Below are positions 2,069 to 31,274 of a DNA stretch of 64,000 nucleotides, in pieces (the first letter of the stretch is position 1; each line of letters begins with the position of its first letter). The notes beneath the pieces are model-generated. The model was not told where the DNA came from, did no database searches, and worked only from the letters and a program-made list of their open reading frames with translations. A program made the translations under genes and the position numbers. Source of the stretch: an uncultured Pelagibacteraceae bacterium (GTDB lineage Bacteria > Pseudomonadota > Alphaproteobacteria > Pelagibacterales > AG-422-B15); assembly GCA_902571005.1 (NCBI GenBank), contig CACGAG010000001.1, positions 40,449-104,448 on the forward strand. The letters are read 5' to 3'.

Positions 2069-3771
2069 GGTTTTAACTCCAATAACATTTCAGATAAATA
2101 TTCCTCGTATTTTTTCCATGCTCCAATAGATTTATTGTTTATTGGTTTTCTGACTTGTTCGATGCTCGCTGTTCTGACTTGTCTTTTATTTTTATGAAAC
2201 TCTAAACATTGATCTTCCCATTCTAGCTCACAATAATCAATTAATTTTTTTGACACAGTTTCTTGATTGTTAACTAATTCTTCGTTGTCTAAAACAAAAA
2301 TATCATTTGCATTTTTTTTAAACCAAAATTTCATTAGGTCTTGATGCAGTTTATAATATGCAGCTAACATTTTCTGATTGTAGGAATATTGATGAGAGAC
2401 TTCCACAAATTTATGTGAGTATAATGAAAAACAGTTATCGACAGGATCCCTTTTACAGTAGATTACCTTTGCTTCAGGTACAATCAGTTTGATCAATCCA
2501 ATAAATATAAAATTATGTGGCATTTTATCACAAATATAGATGGAGTCGTTGCTATCTCGTTTGGATAGCTTATCGAGATATTGCTCCCTGGCGGTAATTA
2601 AATTTTCAGGGTTTTTAATAAAAGAATCAAGATTATTTATTTGATCTTCGGTTGGTTGAATTAAACGAATGTTAAGAACTTCGGCTAGATAATCCAACTC
2701 TCCCGCACCAGTAATTTTTGAATGAGAAGAAAGTATTTGTTCACATAGAGTCGTTCCTGACCTTGGCATTCCACATACAAAGATCGGTATTTGTTTATTA
2801 ATTTTGTCTTTAATTTCAAGATCAACTTTTTTTGAAAAAATACTTTGTAATTTTTTAAAAAAGTTTTTTTCGATTTCTAAATTGAATTTTTTGAGGGAAT
2901 ATTGAGCGTTATTTCCATTTATGAGATAAGATCCTGCTTTTTTATACTCACGTTGATTTTTAAAATATTCAAAAAAAGAATGGCATATCAGTGTTTTATC
3001 TTCAAAATTAAGTCTTTCTTCCGTCAAAAGCTGATCATAATATTTTATATGCTCTTCTTTCAGCTTGTTATTTTTATCCTTAGTGTAGCCTAACAAATAA
3101 GCAATATTTTTATAATCATTTTTGAAACCCTCAGAAGATATTTTGTTTGCTTTTTTAAACTCTCCTATCTCTCTGTACGCTGTTGACAAGTTGTGTTTAA
3201 AATTGTCATTGTCAGGAAAATTTTTATTTAATTCTTCTAGTATATCAATTGCTTCTTCAACCCGGTTATTAATAATTAGGGCTTTAGCACATTGATCTAA
3301 AGCTATCGGGTTACCTGGTTGTATCTTTATTGATAGCTGTGAATAATAAAGAGCATTTTTTGGGTCATTAATTTTATGGTAATAACCTGCTAAATTATTA
3401 ATTGTTGGTACATAGCTTGAATTAATTTTAAATGACTGACTTAAGCATTTATGTGCTAGTTCGTAATTTTTATTCTCCATGTGTATTGTTGCTAAATTAC
3501 TAAGGGCCTGAAATCCCTTTGGATTGACTTTCAATGCCTGGAGAAAATAATTATAAGCCTTTTCGTATTGTTCTAAATCTTGATAGAGAATACCTAAGTG
3601 TCTTATAGCCTCATAATTTGCGGGTTCGCTTGATAAAACTTTATTATATAAAGTTTCAGCTTTACTGTAATTTTTGTTCGTGTGGAGTCTTATACCCTCG
3701 AGCAAATCTTGGTTGACTGTCTGATTGAGTTTATTATTTTTTTTCTGTCTTCTTCGTTCGTGTCTATTCAT
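2065..3771 (-). CDS. TPR-repeat protein with C-terminal PAPS-type sulfotransferase domain
   Basis: The N-terminal half is tandem TPR-like units (e.g. [32 protein letters not shown]). The C-terminal half has the sulfotransferase 5'-PSB loop '[14 protein letters not shown]' and a 3'-PB-like '[14 protein letters not shown]'. It has 4-nt ATGA overlaps with leuS (3768-3771) and lptE (2065-2068). Confidence 0.8.
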
Positions 3772-6338
3772 TTTTCAACAACAATGTTAAGTATTTTATT
3801 TGGAACATAGATTGATTTTAATATATTTTTTCCCGATAAGGCGTCTGTTATGTTTTTGATATTTTTAATTTCTTTTTCAACCTCTTTTTCTGATGTATCT
3901 TTTGAAACAATAACTTCTCCACGCCGTTTACCATTTATCTGAATGACAACAGTTACCTCTTTATTTTCTAAATACTTTGTGTTTGTTGTTGGCCAAGGCT
4001 CGTCCATAATTGATTTATTTTTTCCAACTACTGACCAACATTCTTCAGCCAGGTGAGGAACCATTGGCTCGATTACTCTAATTAGGATGTGCAATGCCTC
4101 ATTCATTGCCTCCTTGCCTTCCTCATCTTCTATCTGAAATTTAGAAATTGCGTTAACTATCTCAAAAACTTTTGCAATTGAGACATTCATTTGAAATTTC
4201 TCAATGCTCTGAGTTATGGCATGAAGGTTTTGATGAATAATTCTTATAAAATCTAGCGATTTTCCCTGATATGTTTTGTCATTACTGTTTGTTGTTTGTT
4301 TAAGGTTTTTCCTATTATTTTGAACAATCGTCCAAATTTTCTGACAAATCTTCCAAGCCCCATTAATACCCGAGTCCGTCCAATTAATGTCTTTTTCAGG
4401 GGGACTGTCAGATAACATAAACCATCTTGCTGAATCGGCTCCATATGTACTTATTATTGATTCAGGATCAATTACGTTTTTCTTTGATTTCGACATCGAT
4501 TCAATTTCTCCCATAGTAACCTGTTTACCAGTGGATATTTGAAAATACTTAGAGTTTTTCTTCTCTACATCATCAGGATAAACCCAGGCATCAGACTCAT
4601 TTTGAAACGTGTGATGACAAACCATGCCTTGTGTAAATAGGCTATCAAAAGGCTCATCCATTCCTTTGATGCTGAGTGCTTTAGTAAAAAATCTAGAGTA
4701 CAATAAATGTAGAATAGCATGCTCAACACCGCCAACGTATTGATCGACTGGCATCCAATAATTAATTTCATCTAAGTTAAAGGGCTCTTTTGTCTCAAGC
4801 GGTGAACAAAATCTCAAAAAATACCATGCTGAGTCGACAAAAGTATCAAGCGTGTCTGTTTCTCTGATAGCATTCATTCCTGTTTCAGGACACTTTGTGA
4901 ATTTCCACTCTGGATGATTGTTAAGAGGATTACCGGGTATGCTTAAATCAATATCATCTGGCAATTCTAATGGCAGTTGGTCCTCAGGGACTTCAATTAC
5001 CTTACCGTCTTCTCTATACATAATTGGAATTGGGCATCCCCAATATCTTTGCCGAGAGACACCCCAATCGCGTAACCTAAAGTTCGTAGTTTTCTTTCCA
5101 ATATGAAGTTCTTCCACTCTTTTGATGATTTCTTTCTTAGCTTCTTCAATAGATAGACCATTTAAAAATTGAGAATTAATAAGTTTACCACTTCCAGTGT
5201 AAGCAGTTTTTTTATCAAGTTCGATATTGTCAGATGGATTTATCACTGGGATAATTTCTAAATTATATTTATTAGCAAAATCTAAGTCTCTTTGGTCATG
5301 CGCAGGACAACCATAAATAGCTCCAGATCCATAATCCATTAAGATGAAGTTTGCTATAAAGACTGGAAGTAATTTATTCTCAATAAAAGGATGTTTAATA
5401 AATAGCTCTGTCGGAACGCCAACTTTCTCGTTTTTGGCTATCGATTCTTCGCTTATTTTATGTGATCTTAATTCATTGACTTGATTATTAAGGGTTTCAC
5501 TTTGTTTTATTAACCTGTCCACAAAGGGATGAAAGGGAGACAAAGCACAAAAAGTAGCTCCAAAAATGGTGTCAGGACGAGTCGTAAATATTCTTAACTT
5601 TTCATTATTGAATTCATCTAATTTTGAAGAAATAACAAAATCAATTTCACATCCAAAAGATTTTCCAATCCAATTTTTTTGCATTATTCTGACTTTTTCT
5701 GGCCATCCAGACATATCATCCAAAGCTTTAAGAAGGCTTTCCGCATAGTCAGTAATTTTAAAAAACCATTGAGAAAGTTTCTTTTGTTCTACCTCAGCTC
5801 CTGATCGCCAACCTTTACCATCAATAACTTGTTCGTTTGCAAGCACCGTATTTTCAACTGGATCCCAGTTCACTAGCGACTCTTTTTTGTAAATTAAATT
5901 TTTTCGGTAAAATTTTAAAAAAAGTTTTTGTTGGTTTTGATAATAAAGTTTGTCACATGTTGCAATTTCTCTAGACCAATCAATTGAAAGACCCATTTGC
6001 TTTAATTGATTTTTCATCGTCTCAATATTTTCATAAGTCCAAGTTTTTGGAGAAGTTTTATTTTCTATTGCCGCATTTTCAGCTGGCAAGCCAAATGCGT
6101 CCCACCCCATTGGATGCATCACGTTAAATCCTTGAGCTCTTTTGTACCTTGCAATTACATCCCCCAATGTATAATTGCGGACGTGCCCCATGTGAATTTT
6201 TCCGGAAGGGTACGGAAACATTTCAAGTATGTAATATTTTTTTTTATTTTTATCTATCTTGCATTCAAATAACTTATTTTCAGACCAATAAGATTGCCAC
6301 TTCTTTTCAATAATTTTTGAATTATATTTTTCTGACAT
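3768..6338 (-). CDS. leuS: Leucine--tRNA ligase
   Basis: 856 aa. Class I aaRS motifs '[15 protein letters not shown]' (HIGH) and 'KMSKSKKN' (KMSKS). Full-length LeuS architecture. Confidence 0.97.
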
Positions 6339-7125: not shown

Positions 7126-8097
7126 ATGAATAGATCAAAAATAATCGGAGCAACCGCTTTAGCTTCAGTAATGGCTGCTGGTGCAGCTCATGCTGAAATG
7201 TCTATTAACGGTTATTTCGCTGGTACGTTGTCAGATAACGACGGTGGTGGATTAGCATCAACGTTTTCTACAAACTCTATATACGTATCTTACAGCGACT
7301 CTATGGATAACGGTATGGGCGTTGGCTTAACAATGTCTGTTACTGCTGCTGGCATCAAAACTGATGTCAACTTCGACACAGGTATGGGTACTGTCGGTTT
7401 AGGTATCGGTCAAGACTCTGCTGTGGACGGCATGGACTCAAACCCAGCATGTTTCTCACTAGTAAATTGCTGGAACGTTGCATTTAGTGGTAAAGGCGGC
7501 GGAACTGGAGTTTATGACGATGGTGACGCAGTATCCGGTAACTCAATTGCATACTCAAACTCAGTAGGTGGAGTATCTTTTAAAGTTACTAGAGGTATGG
7601 AAACTGATAGCGTTGCAGCTGTAGCTGGTGATGTAGATGGCCACACTCCTGGTGATGGAACATACACACTTGGTAACGCTGCTTCTACAGGCTATGACGC
7701 TACAATGTCATATGCTGCTAAAACATCAATCATGGGTGCATCAATCGCTGCTGGTGTGTCACAAATTGATTACAAAGGCTCTGCTACTGATAAGGATCCA
7801 AACTTCTTAACTGTTGGTTATTCAATAGCTGGCCTTAACTTAGGTTATGCAATGTATGACTCTGATGACGGTTCAGAAGAAACTCACATGGGTGTAGGTA
7901 CATCTGTAGCTGGTATGGACGTAGGTGTTCAGTTCGCTGACAGAGATTACACTACTGACACTGATTACATGAGAGTATCTGTTAATAAAGGAATGGGTGC
8001 CGCTTCTTTCGGTATCGATTATCTTGAAACAGATGAAGCTGGTGGAACAGCAAATGACACTGATCAGTGGACATTTAACTATGTAGTTGGATTCTAA
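7126..8097 (+). CDS. Outer-membrane porin-like beta-barrel protein
   Basis: Start moved to ATG 7126, which has an upstream GAAAGGAA RBS. Signal peptide is MNRSKIIGATALASVMAAGAAHA. Gly/Asp/Thr-rich with alternating beta-strand pattern and a C-terminal '...WTFNYVVGF' aromatic OMP signature. Confidence 0.7.
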   Translation: MNRSKIIGATALASVMAAGAAHAEMSINGYFAGTLSDNDGGGLASTFSTNSIYVSYSDSMDNGMGVGLTMSVTAAGIKTDVNFDTGMGTVGLGIGQDSAVDGMDSNPACFSLVNCWNVAFSGKGGGTGVYDDGDAVSGNSIAYSNSVGGVSFKVTRGMETDSVAAVAGDVDGHTPGDGTYTLGNAASTGYDATMSYAAKTSIMGASIAAGVSQIDYKGSATDKDPNFLTVGYSIAGLNLGYAMYDSDDGSEETHMGVGTSVAGMDVGVQFADRDYTTDTDYMRVSVNKGMGAASFGIDYLETDEAGGTANDTDQWTFNYVVGF

Positions 8098-8122
8098 TCA
8101 TCTAATTATTAGTTTAAGATTT

Positions 8123-8158
8123 AAAATGCCCTACATCTATTTGTAGGGCATTTTTTTT
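8123..8158 (+). terminator. Rho-independent terminator after the porin gene
   Basis: Perfect 13-bp stem AAAATGCCCTACA (8123-8135) / TGTAGGGCATTTT (8142-8154) with a 6-nt loop, running into a T8 tract that ends at the yggS start codon. Confidence 0.8.
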
Positions 8159-8812
8159 ATGAGTAGATATAAAAATTTTTTGAGCAGTTTAGAAGTATCT
8201 TTAAAAAGTACTAATAGAAATTCTCAAGACATTAAGCTGATAGCTGTTAGTAAAAAAAAGTCAGCCATAGAGATACAAAAAGTAATCGATGAGGGTCATC
8301 AATCATTTGGAGAAAATCAAATACAGGAAATTGAGGATAAGTGGCCTGGTTTAAAAAAAATTAATTCAAATATCAGTTTGCATTTTATTGGCAGTATACA
8401 AAGTAGAAAAGTTGAGCAAATTTACAAACATTGTGATGTTATTCATTCTATTGATCGAAAAAAAATAGTGAAAAAATTTGATGAGCTAGAAGCATTAGGA
8501 GATATCAAACGTAAATATTTCATACAAATTAATACAGGGAATGAATCACAAAAATCAGGAGTTTTATTGAATGAAGCAGATGAATTTATTTCAGATTGTA
8601 AATCCAACTACAATTTAAATATCGTTGGATTAATGTGTCTACCTCCTATTGATGAAGACCCTAGAAATCATTTTTCAAAGTTGGCAGATCTAGCAAAAAA
8701 ATTTAATTTAAATTGTTTAAGCATGGGTATGTCAGGAGATTATCAAGTTGCCTTAGAGTGCGGTGCCACTCACATAAGAATTGGCACCCATATTTTTGGT
8801 GAGCGAAGTTAA
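8159..8812 (+). CDS. yggS: YggS-family pyridoxal-phosphate homeostasis protein
   Basis: 217 aa. 'LIAVSKKKS...' (PLP lysine) and 'SFGENQIQE' motifs are typical of YggS/PROSC. Confidence 0.85.
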   Translation: MSRYKNFLSSLEVSLKSTNRNSQDIKLIAVSKKKSAIEIQKVIDEGHQSFGENQIQEIEDKWPGLKKINSNISLHFIGSIQSRKVEQIYKHCDVIHSIDRKKIVKKFDELEALGDIKRKYFIQINTGNESQKSGVLLNEADEFISDCKSNYNLNIVGLMCLPPIDEDPRNHFSKLADLAKKFNLNCLSMGMSGDYQVALECGATHIRIGTHIFGERS

Positions 8813-9303
8813 TCTTTTATAATCAGCGTTGTTGTTAAATCTATTTTCTTTGCTAATTCAATAATAACACCTCTTTCTATTGCAATGCATCCCTCGGTTC
8901 CCTCAAAATTTGGTTTGCTTATATGTAAAAATATAGCACTTCCTTTACCCGGTATAACAGGATCAGTGTTATAGTTAATTACAAACAGCAGATCATAAAG
9001 ACCGTCATCTCTAAATAATTTCTCAGCACTTGCATCAAAAGGAAATTGAATATGTTGATTGTATAATCTGCTTTTTGGATCATCGCACCAACCATCATTT
9101 CTTTCAATGGTTGCATAAGGTATTTTGAAAAACATTTCACCCAACCTGTCTTTTCTATAATAAATTTTTTGAAATTTAAATTCACCGACTGGTGTTTTAT
9201 GATCACCTTCAGTTTTATTTGTCGTTAGGCCAGCGCGTCCTATAGCACAAGTCACCTGGCCTAGTTCAGAATGGAGATAATTATTTTGTACCAATAACTT
9301 CAT
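8809..9303 (-). CDS. L,D-transpeptidase (YkuD-like) catalytic-domain protein, no signal peptide
   Basis: C-terminal 'GSAIFLHISKPNFEGTEGCIAIE' matches the YkuD His...Gly-x-Gly-Cys active-site motif. No N-terminal signal sequence is evident. Confidence 0.65.
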   Translation of the reverse strand: MKLLVQNNYLHSELGQVTCAIGRAGLTTNKTEGDHKTPVGEFKFQKIYYRKDRLGEMFFKIPYATIERNDGWCDDPKSRLYNQHIQFPFDASAEKLFRDDGLYDLLFVINYNTDPVIPGKGSAIFLHISKPNFEGTEGCIAIERGVIIELAKKIDLTTTLIIKD

Positions 9304-9328
9304 AATCTATATTATAATCATATAAGAA

Positions 9329-9988
9329 ATGGAAAAAAGAATAATCCCAATCATATTTGGAAATGATAAATTAAGACTTATTATTTCCGAAATAGTTGAG
9401 TCTAGAAAAAATTTTGGAAATTTAGATCTTCGACTCGCTAACAAAAATGATTTACATAAAAATAAGAAAAGTATTTTAATTACTGATAGCGAGTTTGTAG
9501 CGAAAGAATCATCTCATGTAATTAAATTTGACTCAATCTTTATTATTAATTGTAATGGTGAAACAATTGAAATGGATAAATTTAATAGTAGAATTATTGT
9601 TATAAGTATACCGATGCAAATAAGAGATTTATTTCAACAAGTCTCCATTAGCTTAGATCAAATTGACTCACAAATTGCTCGAAAACTAAATTTTAAAAAT
9701 TTCACCTATGATCCAAGCATGAGGACACTCTCTAATGATAATCTTTATTTAAAATTTACAGAGAAAGAGTCTCAAATTTTCAACAGCCTTATAGATGATG
9801 CTAATACACACATTTCAAAAAAAAACTTATTAAAGAAAGTTTGGAGTTATAACGACGATATCGATACGCATACACTTGAAACCCACATATATTCTCTAAG
9901 AAAAAAAATTGAGAAAAATCTTTTGCTTAAGGATCTAATTATTTTCGTAGATAACAAAGGCTACTTTTTAAATAAAGAAATATTATAG
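9329..9988 (+). CDS. OmpR/PhoB-type winged-helix transcriptional regulator with degenerate receiver-like N-terminus
   Basis: C-terminus 'LKFTEKESQIFNSLI...ISKKNLLKKVWSYNDDIDTHTLETHIYSLRKKIE...NKGYFL' fits the Trans_reg_C pattern. The N-terminal ~110 aa has CheY-like beta/alpha periodicity with 'ILITD' but lacks the DD pocket and the conserved Lys. Confidence 0.7.
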   Translation: MEKRIIPIIFGNDKLRLIISEIVESRKNFGNLDLRLANKNDLHKNKKSILITDSEFVAKESSHVIKFDSIFIINCNGETIEMDKFNSRIIVISIPMQIRDLFQQVSISLDQIDSQIARKLNFKNFTYDPSMRTLSNDNLYLKFTEKESQIFNSLIDDANTHISKKNLLKKVWSYNDDIDTHTLETHIYSLRKKIEKNLLLKDLIIFVDNKGYFLNKEIL

Positions 9989-9989
9989 A

Positions 9990-11348
9990 TTAAACATTAA
10001 GCAATAAATGTTCTCGCTCCCATGCACTGATAACATTTTGATATGCATCGTGCTCTGTTTGTTTGATTTCAGTAAAAAGTGTAACAAATTCCTTTCCCAA
10101 AGTTTCGGATAATTCATTACTCACTTTTAATCTTTTTAATGCATCTGGAAGGTATTTAGGAATATTATGCCTTCTTTCAAATGCATCACCTGCAGTGGGT
10201 TTTTCTGGTTCTGATTTTTCTTTTAATCCTAGATATCCACACGCAAGTGATGCCGCAAGAGCAAGATATGGATTTGTATCGGCACCAGGTATTCTATTTT
10301 CTATTCTTCTTGAATCAGGTGATGACGTGGGAACCCTAAAAGCAACAGTTCTATTTTCGATACCCCAGTGGGTATTAATTGGAGCAGAGGCATCAATGAC
10401 AAATCGTCTGTATGAATTAACATAGGGAGCAAATAAGAGCATTGCATCTGGTAAATATGTCTGAAGACCTCCTATGTAATGTAAAAATTCTTTTGAATTA
10501 TTTCCATCTTGATCACTAAAAAGATTTTTATTTGTCTTAGTTGAAACCAGATTTTGGTGAATATGCATTGAACTTCCAGGCTGACCCTGATACGGCTTTG
10601 CCATAAACGTTGCGTGTATACCGTGTTTTAATGCAACTTGTCTGACTGCTCTTTTAAACATGAACGCTTGGTCTGCAAGCGCTAGAGGATCACCATGATT
10701 TAGATTTATTTCTATTTGAGAAGGACCGGACTCATGCACAAGTGTATCCACCCCTATCTCCATTAGCTCGCAATAATCGTAAATATCGTCTGTTAAAGCA
10801 TCAAACTCATTGACGGCATCTATTCCAAAGACACGGCTGCCTGTTTCTCTTCGACCAGACTTTCCAACTGGTGTTTTTAAAGGTAAATCAGGATCAAGAT
10901 TTTGCTCACATAAATAAAACTCTAATTCAGGTGCAACAATTGCTTTTAAATTTTCCTCTTTTAATAATTCAATAATTTTAATTAAAACCTGGCGCGGCGC
11001 AATTTCTGATGCTTCACCGGTGCCATATTTAAGATCGCAAATAATTTGCGCTGTTGGTTCCTTGTTCCAAGGAATTTTTCTCAAAGTTGAAAGGTCAGGA
11101 GACATAAATAAATCTTCTTCGACATAATCAATCACTTCGCTCTCATAGACCCATTTACCAGAAACTGTTTGACCAAAAACTGAGTCAGCGAGTTTGAGAC
11201 TATGGTCTTCTATAGATTTCAAAAATCGTTGAACAGGAAGAATTTTTCCTTTTGATGATCCAGCCATATCAGGAAAAATACATTCTACTTCAGATATTTT
11301 GTTTGACCCAAGCCATTGCTTGAGTTCACTGTTTGAACTAACCGTCAT
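9990..11348 (-). CDS. Glutamine synthetase family protein, PuuA-like gamma-glutamyl-amine (polyamine/alkylamine) ligase
   Basis: 452 aa. Has 'ATFMAKPY', 'GSSMHIHQ', 'APYVNSYRRF', 'WGIENRTVAFRVP' and 'RIPGADTNPYL'. These motifs and the overall length resemble E. coli PuuA more than GlnA. Confidence 0.75.
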   Translation of the reverse strand: MTVSSNSELKQWLGSNKISEVECIFPDMAGSSKGKILPVQRFLKSIEDHSLKLADSVFGQTVSGKWVYESEVIDYVEEDLFMSPDLSTLRKIPWNKEPTAQIICDLKYGTGEASEIAPRQVLIKIIELLKEENLKAIVAPELEFYLCEQNLDPDLPLKTPVGKSGRRETGSRVFGIDAVNEFDALTDDIYDYCELMEIGVDTLVHESGPSQIEINLNHGDPLALADQAFMFKRAVRQVALKHGIHATFMAKPYQGQPGSSMHIHQNLVSTKTNKNLFSDQDGNNSKEFLHYIGGLQTYLPDAMLLFAPYVNSYRRFVIDASAPINTHWGIENRTVAFRVPTSSPDSRRIENRIPGADTNPYLALAASLACGYLGLKEKSEPEKPTAGDAFERRHNIPKYLPDALKRLKVSNELSETLGKEFVTLFTEIKQTEHDAYQNVISAWEREHLLLNV

Positions 11349-21287: not shown

Positions 21288-21704
21288 TTAGAGCACTTGA
21301 TCAAATTTTGATGGCTTCCAATCCTTTGGGGCCAGTTCTAAATCTTCAAATTCAAAAGCGGGTGCGACTGTGCATCCAATTAAGCTATATGCTCCAGTAG
21401 ATTTCAAAGCAAACCAAGTTTCTTTTTCTACAGTGTACATAAAATTATTATTAGATCCTATCTCATTAACTTGGTATTCCTCACCGTCTTTTGATGTGTA
21501 TATGTTTAGAGGACTGCCTGAATAAAAATGTAAAGTTTCGGTTTTTGTTATTCTGTGCCAGTGGGAATTTTCGTGTTCTTCAAGTAAAAAATATATATGA
21601 GTGACGTCGTCATTTCTAAAAATCTCTACGTAATGACCCCCCTCAGGATGTGGAGTCATTTTGTGTTCTTCAATTAAGGCTTTGACAATATTTTTATCAA
21701 TCAC
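21288..21704 (-). CDS. Cupin-superfamily protein (DUF985-like)
   Basis: 138 aa. 'LIEEHKMTPHPEGGHYVEIFR' and 'HWHRITKTETLHFYSG' match the DUF985 cupin pattern. Confidence 0.7.
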   Translation of the reverse strand: MIDKNIVKALIEEHKMTPHPEGGHYVEIFRNDDVTHIYFLLEEHENSHWHRITKTETLHFYSGSPLNIYTSKDGEEYQVNEIGSNNNFMYTVEKETWFALKSTGAYSLIGCTVAPAFEFEDLELAPKDWKPSKFDQVL

Positions 21705-21710
21705 AAGAAA

Positions 21711-23651
21711 CTACTTGTTCATTCGATTTTCAACAAGATCATTAACCACAGCTGGTTCTGCTAATGTAGATGTATCACCTAAATTACTGTAATCATTTTC
21801 AGCAATCTTTCTTAAAATTCTTCTCATAATTTTTCCTGATCTGGTTTTTGGAAGTCCGGGTGCCCATTGAATTAAATCTGGTGATGCGATTGGACCAATT
21901 TCTTTACGAACCCATGCAACAAGTTCTTTATATAATTCGTCTGATGTTTCTTCACCTGCATTGAGCGTAACGTACGCATAGATACCTTGCCCTTTAATAT
22001 CATGAGGGTAACCAACAACCGCTGCTTCACTAACTTTAGGATGTGCAACGAGAGCAGACTCAACTTCTGCTGTTCCCATTCTGTGACCAGATACATTTAT
22101 AACATCATCCACTCTTCCAGTGATCCAGTAATAACCATCTTCATCTCTTCTGCAGCCATCACCAGTAAAATATTTTCCATCAAATTGTGAAAAATACGTT
22201 TCAATGAACCTTTTATGATCTCCGTAAACTGTTCTCATTTGTCCAGGCCATGAGTCCGCTAAACAAAGCGAACCCTCGCATGCACCTTCAAGAATTTTTC
22301 CTTCTGCATCTAAAATTTCTGGCTTTACTCCAAAGAAAGGTTTTGTTGCTGACCCTGGTTTTTGCGCAATGGCTCCTGGAAGAGGTGTTATTAAAATACC
22401 TCCAGTTTCAGTTTGCCACCATGTGTCAACAATCGGACATTTTTTGTCACCAACGACATTATAATACCACATCCACGCTTCTGGATTGATTGGCTCGCCG
22501 ACTGTCCCAAGTAGTTTTAGAGAGGACCTGCTGGTTTTTTTAACAGGATCTTCGCCTTCTCGCATTAATGCCCTAATTGCAGTTGGTGCAGTATAAAAAA
22601 TATTAATTTTGTGTTTATCGACTACTTCCCAAAATCTTGAGGCACTTGGATAGTTTGGGACACCTTCAAACATCACAGTGACAGCCCCATTTGCTAATGG
22701 ACCATATACAATGTAACTATGTCCTGTAACCCAACCTACATCTGCGGTGCACCAATAAACGTCACCCTCTTTATAATCAAAGACATATTGATGTGTCATG
22801 GAAGCATAAACCATATAACCACCAGTGGTGTGCATAACTCCTTTTGGTTTGCCAGTTGATCCAGATGTATACAATATAAAGAGAGGATCTTCTGCTGACA
22901 TTTCCTCAGGGGGACAATTATCAGATTCTTTTTCAGTTAGCTCATGATACCAAACATCTCTTTCATCAACCCAGGCAATATCCCCGCCAGTTCTTTTAAC
23001 AACAATACAATGACGTACACCACCTGAAATCGAAATGGCTTCATCCGTATTTTTCTTTAATGGAATTGCTTTACCGCCTCTTACTCCTTCATCTGCTGTG
23101 ATCACAATATCAGATTTACAGTCACTTATTCTTCCAGCTAACGAGTCTGGAGAAAAGCCTCCAAATACAACAGAATGAATTGCCCCAATTCTTGTACATG
23201 CTAGCATTGCGTAAGCCGCTTCAGGAATCATTGGCATATAAATAGTTACACGATCACCTTTTTTAACTCCAAGAGACTTCATGCCGTTAGCAAGTTTTGA
23301 TACCTCACTGTGTAATTCTTTATAAGATATGTGTTTTGAATCTGCTGGATCATCGCCCTCCCAAATGATTGCGGTTTGATCTCCTTTATCTTTTAAATGT
23401 CTATCAATACAGTTGCTTGATGCGTTGAGTGTACCGTCGTAGTACCACTTGATTGAGAAATTATCTTTATTGTAAGAAACATCTTTTACTTTTGTATACG
23501 GTTTAATCCAATCAATTCTTTTACCGTGCTCACTCCAGAATTCTTCATTGTTATTGAGAGAATTTTCATACCATTCATTATATTTATCTGCATTAATCTG
23601 TGCCTCTGCAGACCATTCACTGCTCACTTCAAACTTTTCATTTTCACTCAT
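21711..23651 (-). CDS. acs: Acetyl-CoA synthetase
   Basis: 646 aa. AMP-binding motif '[13 protein letters not shown]', 'WWQTETGG' and C-terminal '[16 protein letters not shown]'. Confidence 0.97.
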
Positions 23652-23663
23652 AAGGAAATTATT

Positions 23664-24080
23664 TTATTTGATACCGCCGAGATTGCAAATAATTGTCCAC
23701 GACTTTTTATCAATTGGCATAACCGAGAGGCGCGACTGTTTAACCAAGGCTAAGTGATTGAGTTTTGGATGCTCTTTTATTTGAGATAAGTTTACTTTGT
23801 TTTTAAGGGCCTTTACAGCTGCGACGGATACCATGCCAAAACGCTTTGATTTGTCTGTAGGATCAGGATGATATTTCTTAACGACTTTTACTATACCAAC
23901 AATATCCCTTTCTTTGACCGAGTGATAAAAAAAACAAAGATCTCCTTTCTCCATTTTTTTCATATTATTGGATGCTTGGTAGTTTCTGACGCCATCCCAG
24001 CCCTCACCTTTACTGCCGGCTTTCACCTGTTGTTCCCACGACCATGTTTCAGGTTCAGATTTCATTAACCAGTAGTTCAT
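23664..24080 (-). CDS. EVE (PUA-like) domain protein
   Basis: 138 aa. 'MNYWLMKSEPETWSW', 'WDGVRNYQASNNMKKMEKGDLCFFYHS' and 'IVGIVKV' form the canonical EVE/Thy28-like pattern. Confidence 0.85.
   Translation of the reverse strand: MNYWLMKSEPETWSWEQQVKAGSKGEGWDGVRNYQASNNMKKMEKGDLCFFYHSVKERDIVGIVKVVKKYHPDPTDKSKRFGMVSVAAVKALKNKVNLSQIKEHPKLNHLALVKQSRLSVMPIDKKSWTIICNLGGIK
24060..24080. repeat. Outer direct repeat, left copy (21 bp)
   Basis: TTTCATTAACCAGTAGTTCAT. On the minus strand this is ATGAACTACTGGTTAATGAAA, codons 1-7 of the EVE gene. Identical to 27493-27513. Confidence 0.9.
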
Positions 24081-24152
24081 CTAATTGTTTCTCCAATGTT
24101 TACGCCATTTTTGAATCATTGGACTTTCATTTTCCTTGGTTTTTTTAAAACA

Positions 24153-24177
24153 CGTACAACACAAAGTACTACACATT
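24153..24177. repeat. Inner direct repeat, left copy (25 nt, tandem GTACWACACA)
   Basis: CGTACAACACAAAGTACTACACATT. 23/25 identical to 27368-27392. Ends 2 nt before the hsdS-like stop codon. Confidence 0.8.
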
Positions 24178-24179
24178 TA

Positions 24180-25577
24180 TTAATTATAAAAATCTTTAAA
24201 ATTTATTTCCTCATCAATATATTTAATTATTTTTTCAGTTAAAGTTTTCTTTTTGGATAATAAATCAAAACTCTGTTTAACTTTTTTAGAAATAAAATCA
24301 TGAAACTTTTTATCAGACAGAGGAATCTCAAACTGTTTAATTCTATTCGCAAGGGTTGGAATAGTCGATTGAATTACAGTATTTTTTTTAAATTGTACTT
24401 CGCCTATAAATTCAGAAAGTAAACAACCAAAAATATAAAATTGTGAAATATCTGATTTATTTTTAATTTTTAAAGAACGTATGTGACTTTGAAAAACATA
24501 ATCAGTATTCGTGAGAATAGATGGAATTCCAACTTTTCCATCATTATTGATAATAAGATCATATTTATCGAATTTATTATTCTGTAATTTTTTAAAATTT
24601 TTATCACAGAAAAAATCAGGAATTAAATCAACTTGATTATTATATATGTCAGATGTTCTGATAAATGGTAAACTATCATCAGATTTTTCTGTATAAATTT
24701 CATAATTAATACTTCCAATCTCATCACCTTTTATTGGATCGATGTAATTATCTAATTTTACAATCTTATATTTTTTTTTAATATGAGCCTTAATTTTATC
24801 CCAAGTGGGATCAAAAAAAGTAGCATTCCATATATTTGAATCTTTCATATTATTAATTTCGGCAGAAAAAATATTAATTTTCTCGAATAGTTTGTCATCT
24901 AATTTAAAATAATCTCTAAAATTTTTCTTAGTTGCATCAATTGAATTTAAAAATTTTTTTTCAATTTTTATTATTTCTAAAAGAATATCAGCAAGAATTT
25001 TTTGTTTGTTCATCTTCAATAATGGTATTTTAAATTTTTTTAATTTATTCAATGAAACCAAACCTTGATTATTTCCTCCACTACTAGAGTATGTTTGGAT
25101 TTTTGAAAAAAAGGACATAAAGAAGCAAGTTAAATACTCTGGCAAGATTTTTGATGAATTCGTTTTTATATATGCAATATTTCTTGGAAGAGAGGTTGTA
25201 TATTTGACATAATCTTTAAAAATTGCTGTTAAACCAACGGTTCCAACTACAGATAAAAGTACAGTATCATTATCAAGAATTTTATTTTTAAATTTGTCGC
25301 TGTCCAATTTAGATAAAAATATATTATCTCTTACATCTATAATTCCATTTTTTAAATTATGTACATATAGGTACTTTATTTCACCATCTGTTATGGGTTT
25401 AACACCAGTATGAATTCCATCACTAACCAGTGGAAAATATTCAGTATTTCCAAGGTTTATAAATTTTATATTTGATTTATTTAAAAATTTATCTCTTGCT
25501 TTAAGAAAATGAAAATATCTAGGATTAAATCTTTTTTCCTGAATTATCGAATTCAAATCAATCTCGAAGTGATTCAT
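24180..25577 (-). CDS. Restriction-modification specificity subunit (HsdS-like, two target-recognition domains)
   Basis: 465 aa. Two halves each have a variable region followed by a conserved helical spacer ('LNKLKKFKIPLLKMNKQKILADILLEI...' and 'LANRIKQFEIPLSDKKFHDFISKKVKQSFDLL'). ATGA overlap with the upstream methylase gene. Confidence 0.8.
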   Translation of the reverse strand: MNHFEIDLNSIIQEKRFNPRYFHFLKARDKFLNKSNIKFINLGNTEYFPLVSDGIHTGVKPITDGEIKYLYVHNLKNGIIDVRDNIFLSKLDSDKFKNKILDNDTVLLSVVGTVGLTAIFKDYVKYTTSLPRNIAYIKTNSSKILPEYLTCFFMSFFSKIQTYSSSGGNNQGLVSLNKLKKFKIPLLKMNKQKILADILLEIIKIEKKFLNSIDATKKNFRDYFKLDDKLFEKINIFSAEINNMKDSNIWNATFFDPTWDKIKAHIKKKYKIVKLDNYIDPIKGDEIGSINYEIYTEKSDDSLPFIRTSDIYNNQVDLIPDFFCDKNFKKLQNNKFDKYDLIINNDGKVGIPSILTNTDYVFQSHIRSLKIKNKSDISQFYIFGCLLSEFIGEVQFKKNTVIQSTIPTLANRIKQFEIPLSDKKFHDFISKKVKQSFDLLSKKKTLTEKIIKYIDEEINFKDFYN

Positions 25578-27322
25578 TGCTTACTCCATTGTAAAAACTT
25601 CTTTGTAATTATTGGTAAATCATCTTCATCAATTAGATCACCCCTTCTATTGTGACCACAAAATTTTGCAATAGACATGAAAACTTTATAATTTTTTTTT
25701 GGATTACTTGTTTTTTTAAAAATAAGAACACTTGTTTTGGTTGTTGTATGTGGAGCAAATGCTTCTATAGGAATATCAATTATTGCTAGAAGTTGGCCAT
25801 GCCTAATTAAATAATCTCTTATATAAGACATTTTATCGTTACCAAAAATTCCGTCTGGCAAGACTATACCAAGTCTTCCACCTTCCTTAAGCAATTCAAA
25901 ACATCTTTCAATAAACAATATTTGTGGAACCTCATCTTTTTTTAATGAACCTCTAACAAATTTTCCAGCTTTATCTTTTTTTCTCATATATCCAAATTCA
26001 TACTGTGATAGTATTTCTTTATTGGAGATTTTCATTTTAGAACCAAAGGGTGGATTAGTAATAATTATATCAAATTTTTCAGGCTGAACTTCGATTTTTG
26101 TTTTTGATTGCCATTCGCTAAATTTAACTAAAGAGTTTTCACAAAACACTCCAGATCTCCCATCTCCCAAGAGTGCCATATATGCTTTTGCAACCTTACT
26201 TAAAAAATTATCTTTATCTATTCCTCTGATATTTTTAATAGCAATTTTTTGTTTCTCAGCCTCAATTTGTGACTCTGGCCATTTTAACATTGATCCATTT
26301 TTTTCTATTTTATTCCATTGGTATTTTAGGGTTTCTACAAGAAAACCACCACTACCACATGCTGGGTCTAAAACTAATTCATCTTCATTTGGATTTATCA
26401 TTTCTACAATCATTCTAATCACATTTCTTGGTGTAAAAAATTGCCCTTGCCCCCCTTTTAATGAAGGTCCAATAAATACTTCAAAAGCATCAGCAATTGC
26501 ATCTCTAGAAGAATCTGAAAGACTAAATCTTTGTATTTCTCCTACCACAAACGCTAAAGAAATTTTATCCAGAGTTATTTTGTCGTTTTTATCTATTACA
26601 TCATCAAATTTTTTTACAACCTCTTCAAAAATCTTCAAAATTCTATCTTTCACTACTTTTGGATCTTCATCAGTTCCCAATCTAAACTTTGGTGCATCCT
26701 CAGGTTTAGTAAATCTTTCATCATATATTTTACAAAAAATTAAATTAATCATTTGTTGAGCAAGAACTTCATCTCTTGTTGCTCCAACTACATTAGGTGC
26801 TAAAAAATTTCTAATTGTTTTAAATAGTGTTTTTAGATTTCTTGCTGGCTTTAGATCTTTTCTTTTAAAATTACCTATATCTTCTAGTCGTTCACCATAC
26901 TTAGGAAAAGCAGGTAATTCATTGTAGAAAACCTTACCTTTTGAATAAGTTTTGTGTAATATAAATTTTTCTTCACCATTAAACCAAATTCCAATACTCG
27001 CATCTGAAAATTTTAAATAATCTTTAAGTTGTTTTATGCCAGATTTTTTATCAGGTTGTTTGCATTCAACTACTATTTCTAAATCTTCGTCCTTTTTTTT
27101 TGAATTTTTAAATATAGCAATATCAACAGGGTAACTTGATTTTTCTGCTGATGGTCTTTCCCTTACCCTATATTGCGGTCTAGTTTGTATATTTGCTATA
27201 GGATAATCGTAATCTTCCACTAAAATTTTTGAAAATGGTTGGGTCGCCTCTCTTTCCTCTGGAGTATTTTTTACTTCAACACCACTGATAAAATCGATAA
27301 TTATTTTATCATTTTTTGCCAT
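25574..27322 (-). CDS. Fusion of N-terminal PD-(D/E)XK (HsdR_N-like) nuclease domain and gamma-class N6-adenine DNA methyltransferase
   Basis: 582 aa. N-terminus 'YPVDIAIFKNSKKKDEDLEIVVECKQP' gives D...E-x-K. SAM motif I 'VLDPACGSGGFLV' and catalytic motif IV 'IIITNPPFG'. 'GQFFTPRNVIRMIVEMI' is typical of the N6_Mtase/HsdM family. Confidence 0.85.
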   Translation of the reverse strand: MAKNDKIIIDFISGVEVKNTPEEREATQPFSKILVEDYDYPIANIQTRPQYRVRERPSAEKSSYPVDIAIFKNSKKKDEDLEIVVECKQPDKKSGIKQLKDYLKFSDASIGIWFNGEEKFILHKTYSKGKVFYNELPAFPKYGERLEDIGNFKRKDLKPARNLKTLFKTIRNFLAPNVVGATRDEVLAQQMINLIFCKIYDERFTKPEDAPKFRLGTDEDPKVVKDRILKIFEEVVKKFDDVIDKNDKITLDKISLAFVVGEIQRFSLSDSSRDAIADAFEVFIGPSLKGGQGQFFTPRNVIRMIVEMINPNEDELVLDPACGSGGFLVETLKYQWNKIEKNGSMLKWPESQIEAEKQKIAIKNIRGIDKDNFLSKVAKAYMALLGDGRSGVFCENSLVKFSEWQSKTKIEVQPEKFDIIITNPPFGSKMKISNKEILSQYEFGYMRKKDKAGKFVRGSLKKDEVPQILFIERCFELLKEGGRLGIVLPDGIFGNDKMSYIRDYLIRHGQLLAIIDIPIEAFAPHTTTKTSVLIFKKTSNPKKNYKVFMSIAKFCGHNRRGDLIDEDDLPIITKKFLQWSKQ

Positions 27323-27367
27323 ATATTTAATTCTAACAAATCAAATTAAATTTATCTAAGAAAAAGT

Positions 27368-27392
27368 CGTACTACACAACGTACTACACATT
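27368..27392. repeat. Inner direct repeat, right copy (25 nt)
   Basis: CGTACTACACAACGTACTACACATT, which is GTACTACACA twice with a 2-nt spacer. Lies 45 nt upstream of the methylase start codon. Confidence 0.8.
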
Positions 27393-27492
27393 CGCTGATT
27401 TTAAATAGCTTTAATCGACATTTTTAATTGTAAAGATAAGGTAAAGGTTAGTGGGAGTCGGTAGAGTCTTAACGATGTATCACAAGTGTTGG

Positions 27493-27513
27493 TTTCATTA
27501 ACCAGTAGTTCAT
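27493..27513. repeat. Outer direct repeat, right copy (21 bp); orphan 5' fragment of the EVE gene
   Basis: TTTCATTAACCAGTAGTTCAT, beginning 1 nt after the gpsA stop. On the minus strand it opens only MNYWLMKPTLVIHR* (27472-27513). Confidence 0.9.
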
Positions 27514-27514
27514 G

Positions 27515-28513
27515 TTATTCCTTTGTGATTGGTCTATTTAAAAGTTCTTGAATTGTAACATCAATATTTTTCTTACGGTACAAAACTTTGTAAATAGCGT
27601 CATTGATTGGCAAATCCAATTTTTTTTCAATAGATAGTTTTTTTAATGCCCTAACAGTGAATACTCCCTCAGCGACTGAAAATTTTTTTTCAATTATTTG
27701 ATTAAGCGTTTTACCTTTCGCAAGATCAATTCCTAAAGAAAAATTTCTAGACTCTTTTGATGAGCATGTGAGAAATAAATCTCCCATACCAGATAGTCCA
27801 GCGAGCGTACTTTTTTTTGCGTTCATGGATTGCGCTACAATTTTTATTTCTGCAAAACTTCTCGATATAATTGAAGCAACTGCGTTTTCTCCATATTTTT
27901 TTCCAAATACAATCCCGCTGGCAATTGCATAAATATTTTTTAGAGCGCCCGCTATTTGTGAACCAATAATGTCATCAGATAAATAAGGTCTCAATGTTGG
28001 AGACTTAATCAGTTGAGCAATTTTATTAGCAACTCTTCCACTTTTTGAAGCAACGACAGTAGCAGCTGGTAAACCTTTTGCAATCTCAGCTGCGAAATTT
28101 GGTCCTGATATGATAGCAATTTTATTTTTTGGAAACATAGAAGTAACTATCTCACTTGGTAATTTCAGACTATTCATTTCTATTCCCTTAGAGCAGCAAA
28201 CAAATATTGTACTAGTTTTAATATCTTTTTTTAATTTTAATAAATTGGTTGATAAGTATTGAACAGGTGAAACTAAAAATAATATTTCACATTTGACTAC
28301 ATCGAGAATTGATGTTGTACATTTTATTTTCTTACTTAATTTAATCTTTGGCAAATATCTTTTGTTTTCAGATATTTTATTAATATTATCACAAACACTT
28401 TTTTCCTTTGCCCATAAAATAACTTTTTCTTTTTTTGATATAATATTTGCTAATGCAGTTCCCCATGCACCTGCACCGATCACACCGACTTTATATTTAA
28501 TATTATCCTTCAA
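27515..28513 (-). CDS. gpsA: NAD(P)H-dependent glycerol-3-phosphate dehydrogenase
   Basis: 332 aa. 'VGVIGAGAWGTALA' Rossmann motif and 'GALKNIYAIASGI'. Confidence 0.93.
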   Translation of the reverse strand: MKDNIKYKVGVIGAGAWGTALANIISKKEKVILWAKEKSVCDNINKISENKRYLPKIKLSKKIKCTTSILDVVKCEILFLVSPVQYLSTNLLKLKKDIKTSTIFVCCSKGIEMNSLKLPSEIVTSMFPKNKIAIISGPNFAAEIAKGLPAATVVASKSGRVANKIAQLIKSPTLRPYLSDDIIGSQIAGALKNIYAIASGIVFGKKYGENAVASIISRSFAEIKIVAQSMNAKKSTLAGLSGMGDLFLTCSSKESRNFSLGIDLAKGKTLNQIIEKKFSVAEGVFTVRALKKLSIEKKLDLPINDAIYKVLYRKKNIDVTIQELLNRPITKE

Positions 28514-29585: not shown

Positions 29586-29629
29586 ACTATTTAATAATGT
29601 ATCATATATACATTTAAGAATAATAATTT

Positions 29630-30592
29630 ATGTCAAATTTAAACAGAATTTTAGTTGGAATTAGAGATAGCAAATTATCAAGAACACAAACCAACATATT
29701 GCTGAATCAACTAGTAAGTGTTTCAAGAGAAATTACTAATGAGTCATTTGTTATAAAAACTATCAAAACAAAAGGAGACGTTCATAATGAAAAACGACTT
29801 GATCAGATTGGTGGTAAAGGTTTGTTTATCAAGGAAATTGAGGATCAAATATTAAAAAGTAAAGTAGATATTGGTGTTCACTCTATGAAGGATGTCCCAG
29901 CGGAGGATAGCTCAGATAAGCTTGATATTATATGTTGGTTCAAAAGAGAAAATCATCGCGAAGCGCTACTATCAAACTCCGGTCAGAAATTTTTTGACTT
30001 ACCTCCTGGATCAGTTATTGGAACGAGCTCTATTAGAAGAAGGGCCCAAATTCTAAATTTAAGACAAGATCTTAATATTAAATTGCTTAGAGGTAATGTA
30101 GATACGCGTATTAAAAAGCTTAGAGAAAATAATTATGATGCAATCATTTTAAGTTTTGCGGGACTAAAACGACTAGGTTTACTTGATCAAGTAACAGAGG
30201 AGCTGGATGAAGAAAATTTTCTTCCCGCGGCATGTCAAGGAACGATTGGAATACAGGCAAAGCGTGGCAACAATTTAAAAGATGTGTTTGCAATCATTAA
30301 TCATCATGAGACAGAAATCGCATCCCTCACTGAAAGAAAGGTCTTAAAAACTATAAAAGCTAATTGCAACAGTCCAATTTCAGTTTATTCGAAAATTAAA
30401 GATGACGTTATAGTTTTAAAATGTGAAATTTTTGATCACAATGGTTTAAAAATTTTTTCAAAAGATATATCTGATGTAAAAAATAAACACCTCAGTCTTG
30501 CTGATGAACTTTCACAGACCATACTTAAAGATGTGGGTCAAGAAAAAATAAATGAATTAAATAATATAAATGATTTTAATTATTCGTCCTAA
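29630..30592 (+). CDS. hemC: Hydroxymethylbilane synthase (porphobilinogen deaminase)
   Basis: 320 aa. 'GIRDSKLSRTQTN', 'GGKGLFIKEIE', 'TSSIRRRAQIL' and 'LPAACQGTIGIQ'. Confidence 0.93.
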   Translation: MSNLNRILVGIRDSKLSRTQTNILLNQLVSVSREITNESFVIKTIKTKGDVHNEKRLDQIGGKGLFIKEIEDQILKSKVDIGVHSMKDVPAEDSSDKLDIICWFKRENHREALLSNSGQKFFDLPPGSVIGTSSIRRRAQILNLRQDLNIKLLRGNVDTRIKKLRENNYDAIILSFAGLKRLGLLDQVTEELDEENFLPAACQGTIGIQAKRGNNLKDVFAIINHHETEIASLTERKVLKTIKANCNSPISVYSKIKDDVIVLKCEIFDHNGLKIFSKDISDVKNKHLSLADELSQTILKDVGQEKINELNNINDFNYSS

Positions 30593-31274
30593 AATTGATT
30601 TTGATATCATTGTTTCAGATCTTCAGAAATCAAAATATAAATTTCACAATGAGCCTTTTATGTATTTTAAAAAGCTTAGCCCTAAAATAAGATTCGATCC
30701 AAATTGTTTTTATTTAATTTCAAGTTTACAGGCCATAAAATTCTTAAAACTTAAAAAGAAATTTATTCAAAATGGAAATTTTTTGGTTATTGGACAAAAA
30801 GTAAAAAAAGGCATGCAATCAATAGGGGTTAAAAAAATTCATCATGTTTTTAAAGACAGTTATGATTTATTAAATTTTGTGAAGAAAGAAAAGTACGTAA
30901 ATCATATTCATCACTTAACAGGAACTGTTGCAAACGAAGTTTTAAATGAAATCAATAAAAAGAAATTAAAAAACTATAAATCAACAAAAGTTTATAAAGT
31001 TCTTTTTAAGAAAAAATTATCCAAACGCTTGAGAAAATTAATTGCTTCGGAAGAAATAGTATTTATGCTTCACTACTCCCTAAAAGTCTCAGAGGTGTTT
31101 TTTAAAAAAAATAGTCAAAATGAAAAGATTTGGTTTAAAAAGAAAATTTATCATTTGTGTATGAGCCCGCGGATTGCAAAAGGGCTTCAAAATTTGGGAG
31201 TTTCAAAAACATTGCTAAAAACATCAAAAAAACCCAACAATAAGTCTCTGTTGTTGCTTTTAAAACACATATAA
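30570..31274 (+). CDS. hemD: Uroporphyrinogen-III synthase (divergent)
   Basis: 234 aa, immediately after hemC with a 23-nt overlap as drawn. HemD-like landmarks are 'ILIIRP', 'FYLISSLQAIKFL', 'LVIGQKVKKGMQSIG' and 'LCMSPRIAKGLQNLG'. Low sequence conservation. Confidence 0.6.
   Translation: MILIIRPKIDFDIIVSDLQKSKYKFHNEPFMYFKKLSPKIRFDPNCFYLISSLQAIKFLKLKKKFIQNGNFLVIGQKVKKGMQSIGVKKIHHVFKDSYDLLNFVKKEKYVNHIHHLTGTVANEVLNEINKKKLKNYKSTKVYKVLFKKKLSKRLRKLIASEEIVFMLHYSLKVSEVFFKKNSQNEKIWFKKKIYHLCMSPRIAKGLQNLGVSKTLLKTSKKPNNKSLLLLLKHI

Follow-up and report, generated by a model that had tools for sequence, protein, structure and literature searches.

A restriction-modification cassette in a recurrent insertion hotspot at the first codons of an EVE-domain gene in Pelagibacteraceae

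The closest described counterpart of the locus reported here is the 'insertion with long target duplication' of restriction-modification (R-M) systems (Nobusato et al. 2000; Furuta, Abe & Kobayashi 2010, PMC2853133), whose repeats often lie across the start or stop of translation and to which no mechanism had been assigned (PMC2853133). Our locus lies in a stretch of 64,000 nucleotides from an uncultured Pelagibacteraceae bacterium (NCBI GenBank assembly GCA_902571005.1, contig CACGAG010000001.1, positions 40,449 to 104,448; hereafter 'the window', with positions counted from its first letter), where a 3.4-kb R-M cassette stands at the first codons of an EVE-domain gene. As in the described cases, the bordering repeats are made of target sequence, no mobility gene is present, and the repeat lies across the translation start so that the target gene survives. 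By the description of 2010, such inserts hold both restriction and modification functions, as this one does, and are <20 kb without mobile-element genes, as are the 3.4 kb here; an empty site with a single repeat copy likewise exists. The duplication should be >30 bp, but it is 21 bp in the window and 27 bp in a second lineage (locus L081; loci compared are numbered with the prefix L), with 58 and 99 nt in other inserts at the site. The present case differs further in that its junction and arms are shared with cargo other than R-M, so that the R-M genes here are passengers, and in that one transfer was ordinary homologous recombination of a larger tract. We put at roughly 60% the probability that this is an accessory, Type IIB-like R-M cassette in a recurrent hotspot at the first codons of EVE, spread by homologous recombination and entering naive sites through 21 nt of homology.

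Three other kinds of element bear comparison. Across 135 complete Pelagibacter genomes, thousands of small low-GC islands have been reported, enriched in R-M genes and with almost no transposases or phage genes; small low-GC R-M islands without mobility genes are common in them, and deposition of cargo by prophages is favoured (bioRxiv 10.64898/2026.04.03.716430). A search of that text found no mention of tsaD, a gene that will figure below, or of direct repeats. Our cassette resembles these scattered islands as a low-GC island of few genes on a conserved backbone, to which it adds a defined hotspot, a shared scaffold and a recombination tract. Cis-mobilisable elements, which are flanked by att sites and lack an integrase, and the tandem tycheposon arrays of Prochlorococcus (10.1101/2020.12.28.424599) also carry cargo between direct repeats of the end of a conserved gene, and in tycheposon-like arrays later arrivals push earlier ones outward, leaving a partial copy of the target between units (compare L109 and L084 below). 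The target here, however, is the 5′ end of a protein gene and not a tRNA, no recombinase-bearing partner is known, and the repeat pattern is unlike that of a fixed crossover. Integron cassette arrays are similar in that unrelated, mostly promoter-proximal cargo is stacked beside a fixed gene with a short repeat bounding each cargo; they differ in that X, the inner repeat of our cassette, flanks the cargo left and right and is built of direct tandem repeats, unlike the imperfect palindrome of attC, and no IntI was found here. All three (cis-mobilisable elements, tycheposons and integrons) are functional analogies only; their defining enzymes or sites were not found at this locus.

The 21-mer TTTCATTAACCAGTAGTTCAT occurs exactly twice in the 64 kb, at 24060-24080 and 27493-27513, with both copies on the + strand and identical at 21/21 positions. 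No third copy was found in the 64 kb even when 3 mismatches were allowed, and two matches arose in none of 100 dinucleotide-preserving shuffles. A perfect 21-bp direct repeat at these positions had been described in an earlier note on this DNA, made from the sequence alone, which had also raised the possibility that the 21-mer is a common dispersed repeat; the first point is borne out and the second is not, the copies being confined to the two positions. On the minus strand, which carries all genes of the locus, the repeat reads ATGAACTACTGGTTAATGAAA and forms codons 1-7 of the EVE gene (23664-24080; Pfam EVE, E 2.6e-47), the insertion target. The left copy (24060-24080) is the working EVE start, while the right copy (27493-27513) is an EVE pseudo-start that begins 1 nt past the stop of the upstream core gene gpsA (27515-28513; Pfam NAD_Gly3P_dh_N and NAD_Gly3P_dh_C) and opens a dead-end frame of 14 codons (MNYWLMKPTLVIHR and a stop; 27469-27513). 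The minus-strand reading and the Pfam assignment agree with the earlier note on the identity of the repeat, and reading of the sequence with its account of the right copy. Related dead-end frames are present in other elements, for example MTKSYWLMKPTLVVLR and a stop in L052.

In order of transcription the locus consists of gpsA, the right 21-nt copy, a right arm, X, the restriction-methylase (RM) gene, the specificity (S) gene, a second X, a left arm and the left 21-nt copy with EVE. The outer right arm (27415-27492, minus strand) is non-coding and pyrimidine-rich with the core AAGACTCTACCGACTCCCAC, and is common to elements with unrelated cargo. It is followed by the right copy of X (27362-27414; found by repeat search and, with an nhmmer model of X, at E 3.7e-11), whose core at 27369-27390 holds TGTGTAGTAC two times with a period of 12 nt, then CGAC and a run of T. 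The left copy of X (24147-24199, core 24154-24175), which overlaps the stop codon of the S gene, was recovered by the same repeat search and model. The two copies of X form an inner direct repeat of 53 nt with 79% identity that the earlier note had overlooked. Beyond it, the left arm (24081-24146), with homologues in other loci, supplies a GGAG and a 12-codon upstream frame (MIQKWRKHWRNN and a stop; 24081-24119) whose TAG abuts the ATG of EVE, the arm terminating in GGAGAAACAATTAG directly against that ATG. Through the insert EVE has acquired a new upstream region, which includes GGAG as a ribosome-binding site. The genes thus sit in a non-coding scaffold of pseudo-EVE start, right arm, X, cargo, X and left arm with a ribosome-binding site for EVE.

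Only two genes lie between the repeats: a 582-aa restriction-methylase fusion (25574-27322; HSDR_N_2 plus a gamma-type N6-adenine methylase, N6_Mtase) and a 465-aa S subunit with two target-recognition domains (24180-25577; Pfam Methylase_S, and PADLOC Specificity_I in two stretches), the start of the S gene overlapping the stop of the RM gene. Open reading frames (ORFs), Pfam and PADLOC agree with what the earlier note had read there, and the cassette encodes nothing for its own movement. The fusion matches PADLOC MTase_II (E 1e-96), and its best solved relative is RM.BsaXI (PDB 8w0p; E 9e-31). The cargo is therefore predicted to be a BsaXI/BcgI-like Type IIB R-M system, the likeness to BcgI and BsaXI being one of sequence and consisting in a nuclease-methylase fusion with a separate S subunit of two target-recognition domains. 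Assignment to the MADS defence system was rejected, the NCBIfam scores being far below cut-off (MAD2, 418 bits versus 720; MAD5, 93 versus 400) and the genes only two. The insert (24081-27492) has a GC content of 27.1%, the lowest among all 3.4-kb stretches of the 64 kb (mean 33.8%, s.d. 2.6), and by tetranucleotide distance from the average of the window it ranks in the top 3.6%, in agreement with the AT-richness relative to the flanks that had been judged by eye.

A scan of species-representative genomes with the EVE protein led to ten close Pelagibacteraceae single-cell genomes, and in eight of them EVE follows gpsA after 1-5 nt. An empty site is present in 18 related genomes (L001-L006, L009, L010 and L086-L095), and the junction of L003, acaaaggaataacATGAACTACTGGTTAATGAAATCAGAACC, is the predicted junction acaaaggaataacATGAACTACTGGTTAATGAAATC with one synonymous difference. 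The exact EVE protein of the window recurs in 181 blocks of the assembly collection, and 10 of the 10 long contigs listed have the empty site. With the insert removed, the window is colinear with the empty-site genomes at 91-98% identity and without anomaly at the junction. The empty sites and the colinear alignment indicate that the insertion is real, derived and rare in its clade. The tightly coupled ancestral gpsA-EVE junction interrupted by a cassette, as proposed in the earlier note together with the expected form of the empty site, is thereby supported; the opposite outcome considered there, that all relatives carry the identical cassette, is contradicted by these 18 genomes and by the other cargo found at the junction.

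These data bear directly on the reverse scenario, an ancestral cassette that the relatives have since deleted between the 21-bp repeats. Direct repeats readily permit such a deletion, which would leave exactly the empty junction that is seen. Yet the empty state is found in 21 of 24 gpsA-type loci, diverged ones included, the cassette is the segment of lowest GC in the window, and its repeats are still perfect; together with two comparisons of near-identical copies given below, this makes ancestral loss very improbable.

The first of these comparisons captures a transfer. The exact S protein of the window also occurs on the NCBI contig CACIHI010000009.1 (L179), in the order gpsA-RM-S-EVE and in a separate genome that differs from the window at 7.5% of positions around the locus (~92% identity). 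From 23287 to 27574, however, the two differ at just 2 of ~4290 positions, versus 7.5% in the flanks. This near-identical tract passes the right repeat by 61 nt, into gpsA, and the left repeat by ~770 nt, through all of EVE and into acs, so that near-identity reaches into core genes as expected of an island exchanged by recombination in its flanks. The transfer was a homologous recombination event with crossovers in the flanking core genes gpsA and acs, and used host homologous recombination and not a cassette-encoded enzyme. Since the identical tract overruns both repeats, the exchanged unit was a larger recombination tract and not a repeat-bounded segment; the notion that the 21-bp repeats bound the mobile unit, put forward earlier, does not hold for this one traceable transfer. 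The ~100% identity between two genomes that are 7.5% divergent around the cassette also speaks against ancestral loss. As a separate observation, the hemC side (window positions 29600-30600) is only 67-79% identical to L179, the remaining flanks being 84-97% identical, which suggests another recombination boundary or a divergent allele.

The site itself is used repeatedly. Among 87 sampled Pelagibacter loci with a visible upstream gene, the gene before EVE is tsaD in 63 and gpsA in 24. The tsaD|EVE junction is tight in 30 loci (2-23 nt), has a short spacer in 6 (53-101 nt) and is occupied in 27 by inserts of 0.7-8.6 kb; the gpsA|EVE junction is empty in 21 and occupied in three (the window, L179 and L007). 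About 30 of the 87 junctions are thus occupied. Likewise, of 10 long contigs with an exact EVE protein of the tsaD clade (P0180), eight have the tight junction and the other two carry inserts. The cargo is typical of SAR11 flexible content (glycosyltransferases, epimerases, FkbM methyltransferases, sulfotransferase-TPR proteins and 2-oxoglutarate oxygenases), and its majority is unrelated to defence. The insertion was earlier judged unusual for a streamlined genome; this frequency, and the R-M islands without mobility genes that have been reported as common, show otherwise. Three different R-M or defence sets do occupy the EVE site: the cassette of the window, one in L052, and one in L148 (817-6819) that combines an HNH nuclease and a Z1-domain protein with two Dcm methylases. 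As EVE domains read modified bases, the neighbourhood of R-M or defence sets with EVE may not be accidental.

SAR11 genomes harbour almost no classical mobile elements, yet have an open pangenome. The EVE start is a concrete and repeatedly used entry point for gene gain in this group, at which empty, singly occupied and multiply occupied alleles all exist, and these allelic states make the question of how genes enter testable in natural populations and cultures.

The second comparison concerns a distant lineage. A 99%-identical relative of the RM protein occurs on two Tara scaffolds (L081 and L082), from samples SAMEA6052032 and SAMEA6052098. Identity between L081 and the window is 98.9% over window positions 27519 to 24049, with no homology in the flanks, where L081 has a TPR gene on the opposite strand upstream and a different EVE gene (MKYWLLKSEPDVWSIDQQ) downstream. 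The L081 cassette is bordered by a perfect repeat of its own, ATGAAGTACTGGTTATTAAAA, which extends to 27 nt when the preceding AATTAG is counted; in both copies it differs from the 21-mer of the window at positions 6, 16 and 18 (three positions spanning 13 nt), and it matches the EVE start of that Pelagibacter lineage. The same start is native in a lineage without the cassette (L126), which shows only the native occurrence of this EVE start variant, the exact empty site of the L081 lineage not having been found. A chimeric assembly was rejected as the source of L081, as both of its repeat copies differ from those of the window and two samples give the same right junction. A defence system is thus able to pass, with about 99% identity, from one SAR11 lineage to another that is deeply diverged from it. 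An identity of 98.9% to a copy in a lineage with a different EVE start and non-homologous visible flanks is again at odds with ancestral loss.

Divergence between the window and L081 is unevenly distributed: 23 of 3336 positions differ in the interior (0.69%), 7 of 76 in the outer right arm (9%) and 3 of 21 in each repeat copy (14%). Moreover, the outer right arm of the window is closer to that of L109, which carries other cargo, than to that of L081 with the same cargo, sharing with L109 an identical block of 54 nt. This uneven divergence and the disagreement between arm and cargo show that the elements are mosaic, with different histories of cargo and outer scaffold.

Host-type repeats at both ends in two lineages are also what a true target duplication would produce, either from a staggered break, as in the R-M 'insertion with long target duplication' with breakage by the R-M system itself, or through a transposase acting in trans. 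In the window the insert is R-M only, an empty site exists and the repeat spans the translation start as in many cases in PMC2853133; two further R-M or defence sets stand at the same site (L052 and L148). We nevertheless consider target duplication unlikely, chiefly on the evidence of the scaffold. The AAA|CCAA junction of pseudo-start and right arm, X and the left arm all recur with unrelated cargo, different cargo between the same repeats being what the earlier note had proposed to look for. The cargo is a Dcm methylase with an NgoFVII-type endonuclease in L052 (Ca. Pelagibacter sp. Uisw_090; 7836-9903), an AsnC regulator with a DHDPS-like gene in L054 and in decayed form in L053, an FkbM-type methyltransferase in L131, a small membrane protein in L109 and a 7-kb metabolic block in L165. 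As AAA|CCAA is shared by elements without R-M genes (AsnC plus DHDPS-like, FkbM methyltransferase, small membrane protein), the junction is inherited and not remade at each insertion. Against target duplication also stand the lack of terminal inverted repeats and of a transposase, and duplications that always start at the ATG with the other end variable, which random staggered cuts would not lead one to expect.

Right arms were found in L081, L082, L109, L131, L052, L054 and L165, at 62-95% identity to the window over 130 nt past the right repeat, and left arms upstream of EVE in L008, L052-L054, L081, L098, L109, L131, L157 and L183. L183 has a 256-aa ORF behind a 24-nt repeat and a different right-arm junction. 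The two X copies of one element are more alike than X copies across elements, and the core variants of X include TGTGTAGTAC, TGTATAGTAC, ACATGTCAC, TATGGTAC and GGGGTAC. Left arm and X are 56-72% identical between lineages whose EVE 4-fold sites are 29-55% identical; the scaffold is thus either constrained or recently exchanged. Units also stand in tandem. In L109 (MDTG01405461.1, 1440-2200) the order is older cargo, X, left arm, pseudo-start, right arm, X, an ORF for a 109-aa membrane protein, X, left arm and EVE. Downstream of tsaD in L097 (Ga0222670_1002677, 2784-4870), two methyltransferase genes are set apart by the EVE 5′ end in triplicate, as pieces of 58 nt and 99 nt and as the full gene; the two inserts are serial insertions with long, variable duplications. 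All EVE 5′ duplications begin at the ATG and vary in length (21 nt in the window, 24 nt in L183, 58 and 99 nt in L097). An RM+S pair of 76% identity, present in L083 (2500-6011), L084 (1080-1520) and L178 (1-160), is bordered by its own X-like repeat, AGTGTGGCGTAT[T/G]TGTGCC, and by partial copies of tRNA-Ser or tRNA-Gln; no integrase was found on these three contigs.

Two smaller features of the elements were recorded. A left-arm frame of 8-12 codons is conserved, being MIQKWRKHWRNN and a stop in the window and M[FI]KK[VI]SKHWRNN and a stop elsewhere (L098, L109, L053, L054, L131, L052, L008 and L183); its TAG stop borders directly on the ATG of EVE, and the frame could encode a leader peptide or be what is left of the end of an earlier gene. 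L007 (AG-900-K14) has an ORF for a 193-aa protein with a signal peptide between gpsA and EVE (9391-10014), and its EVE N-terminus, MTRSYYLMK, is similar to MTKSYWLMK, the pseudo-start with which the L052 element ends on the right, so the L007 start may be a scar of recombination between repeat copies.

Spread by homologous recombination, the reading that we favour, would proceed in three steps. First, as the transfer between the window and L179 demonstrates, the cassette can move within the clade in a tract of ~4.3 kb through host recombination with crossovers in the core genes gpsA and acs. Second, the mosaic divergence suggests that cargo may be swapped between scaffolds by crossovers in the arms or X. 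Third, the naive gpsA|EVE site would first have been invaded from the tsaD|EVE clade. The incoming element would have carried 21 nt of EVE start at each end, extending to as much as 32 nt on the side of EVE, and no other homology would have been available. A circular form could have entered by a Campbell-type single crossover, or two crossovers could have fallen inside this short stretch; either route would give two perfect 21-mers. As donor and recipient are homologous from the ATG onward and not before it, the duplication would also start there, leaving EVE intact. The puzzle of an absent recombinase, which the earlier note had left standing, is thus largely resolved for spread within the clade, as distinct from the founding event and the role of the scaffold.

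Several points weigh against this reading. The 21 nt of homology do not exceed the minimum that RecA-dependent exchange usually requires, and entry into a naive site, the third step, is inferred and not observed. Both repeat copies of L081 carry three lineage-specific bases, which short-homology crossover can explain only with crossovers at the extreme edges, or with cargo alone exchanged into a scaffold that this lineage already had. Conservation of the arms and X exceeds that of neutral sites, and the 12-nt subrepeats that make up X in tandem, present to either side of the cargo, look as binding sites of a dedicated recombinase would. Neither a scaffold without cargo nor a circular form was found.

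The main rival is a non-autonomous integrative element (similar to cis-mobilisable elements, or a decayed island) whose site-specific tyrosine recombinase would be encoded outside it, by the genome or by a phage or satellite. The EVE start would then be attB, left arm, core and right arm attP, and the X subrepeats candidates for arm-type binding sites, with the conserved TTGATT as an IHF-like motif. Such an origin would account for a target at the end of a conserved gene that the element restores, for the conserved arms of 65-130 nt that stand left and right, both with 12-nt subrepeats in tandem, and for tandem arrays in which left arm, pseudo-start and right arm lie between two cargos (L109). 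It would also suit the 76%-identical RM+S cassette with its X-like pair and partial tRNA-Ser or tRNA-Gln copies (L083 and L084) and a left arm and X more conserved than EVE 4-fold sites; pelagiphage integrases with cores of 11-46 bp exist (10.1101/410191). The repeats argue the other way. A fixed crossover predicts chimeric repeats, whereas the window and L081 each have two identical host-type copies (with differences at positions 6, 16 and 18) despite 99.3%-identical cargo. Of the earlier proposal that the 21 nt were duplicated or shared as an att core, with EVE regenerated behind a new upstream region, the regeneration stands, and with it the new upstream region carrying GGAG, but an att core with a fixed crossover fits poorly, as the copies of the other lineage are both host-type. 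In addition, the duplications vary in length (21, 24, 58 and 99 nt), at least 5 variants of X would each need a matching enzyme, and the traced transfer between the window and L179 bypassed the repeats.

Nor did a recombinase come to light, in screens that covered the loci and their neighbourhoods and not whole carrier genomes, with a motif scan and a family list that are not exhaustive. None was seen in about 35 occupied sites. A six-frame scan for the tyrosine-recombinase box II motif gave no match in the window or in Pelagibacter loci L001-L175, its sole match being in a non-Pelagibacter locus; an integrase family was absent from the best 25 families listed for 86 cargo ORFs and was not listed among the Pfam-annotated neighbours of L180-L189. 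No convincing XerC/XerD arms were recognised in the 21-mer or X in a comparison with dif/Xer sites by eye only. A phage relative of the element was not found in the phage records or IMG/VR: the natural left arm/start/right arm junction of L109 had no blastn match in 50,697 phage records, the whole cassette matched only an unrelated methylase gene segment in them, and three IMG/VR pattern scans for the arms yielded nothing beyond two chance matches (in a GC-rich contig and inside a coding region). On balance, a recombinase supplied in trans is possible but doubtful. Also in line with the earlier note, which had reported no recombinase, transposase, tRNA or terminal inverted repeat nearby, none was found: no transposase domain is among the Pfam matches of the window, the reported repeat pairs include no terminal inverted repeats and the window has no long ones, and its sole tRNA is at 16253.

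The scaffold, conserved and non-coding, is a possible recombination site. Tentatively, right arm, X and left arm might constitute an undescribed gene-capture platform of SAR11, recombinase-less or mobilised in trans and anchored on the EVE start codon and with relatives at tRNA genes; cargo would be exchanged at X, and units would accrete in tandem. Were this so, SAR11 would possess a parallel in function to integrons or tycheposons, with different sites and enzyme.

Other roles for parts of the scaffold were tried and rejected. X is not the recognition site of the R-M enzyme, as it also borders non-R-M cargo, nor a terminator, no terminator-like sites having been found; promoter-like sites were not above the shuffled expectation. 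A likeness of 11 nt of the right arm to a tRNA D-loop, seen by eye, suggested a fossil tRNA, but cmscan up to E 10 gave no tRNA match, and neither arm had an Rfam match of any weight. A part of the left arm (24130-24160, minus strand) scored as a preQ1-I riboswitch with 16 bits versus a gathering score of 39 (E = 8), which is not significant.

Two contigs show unusual arrangements that are probably assembly artefacts: the nanopore contig L095 has gpsA-EVE-acs twice, with EVE copies 4 kb apart (3980-4395 and 8001-8417), and the 1.1-kb contig L119 has EVE starts in both orientations (69-133 and 483-537). A second variable spot lies just downstream, between acs and cupin_5 (window positions 21704-21711), where the distance between the two genes is 6-17 nt in the window, L002, L003 and L004, ~0.8 kb in L094 and 1.0-2.4 kb in L001, L006 and L007.

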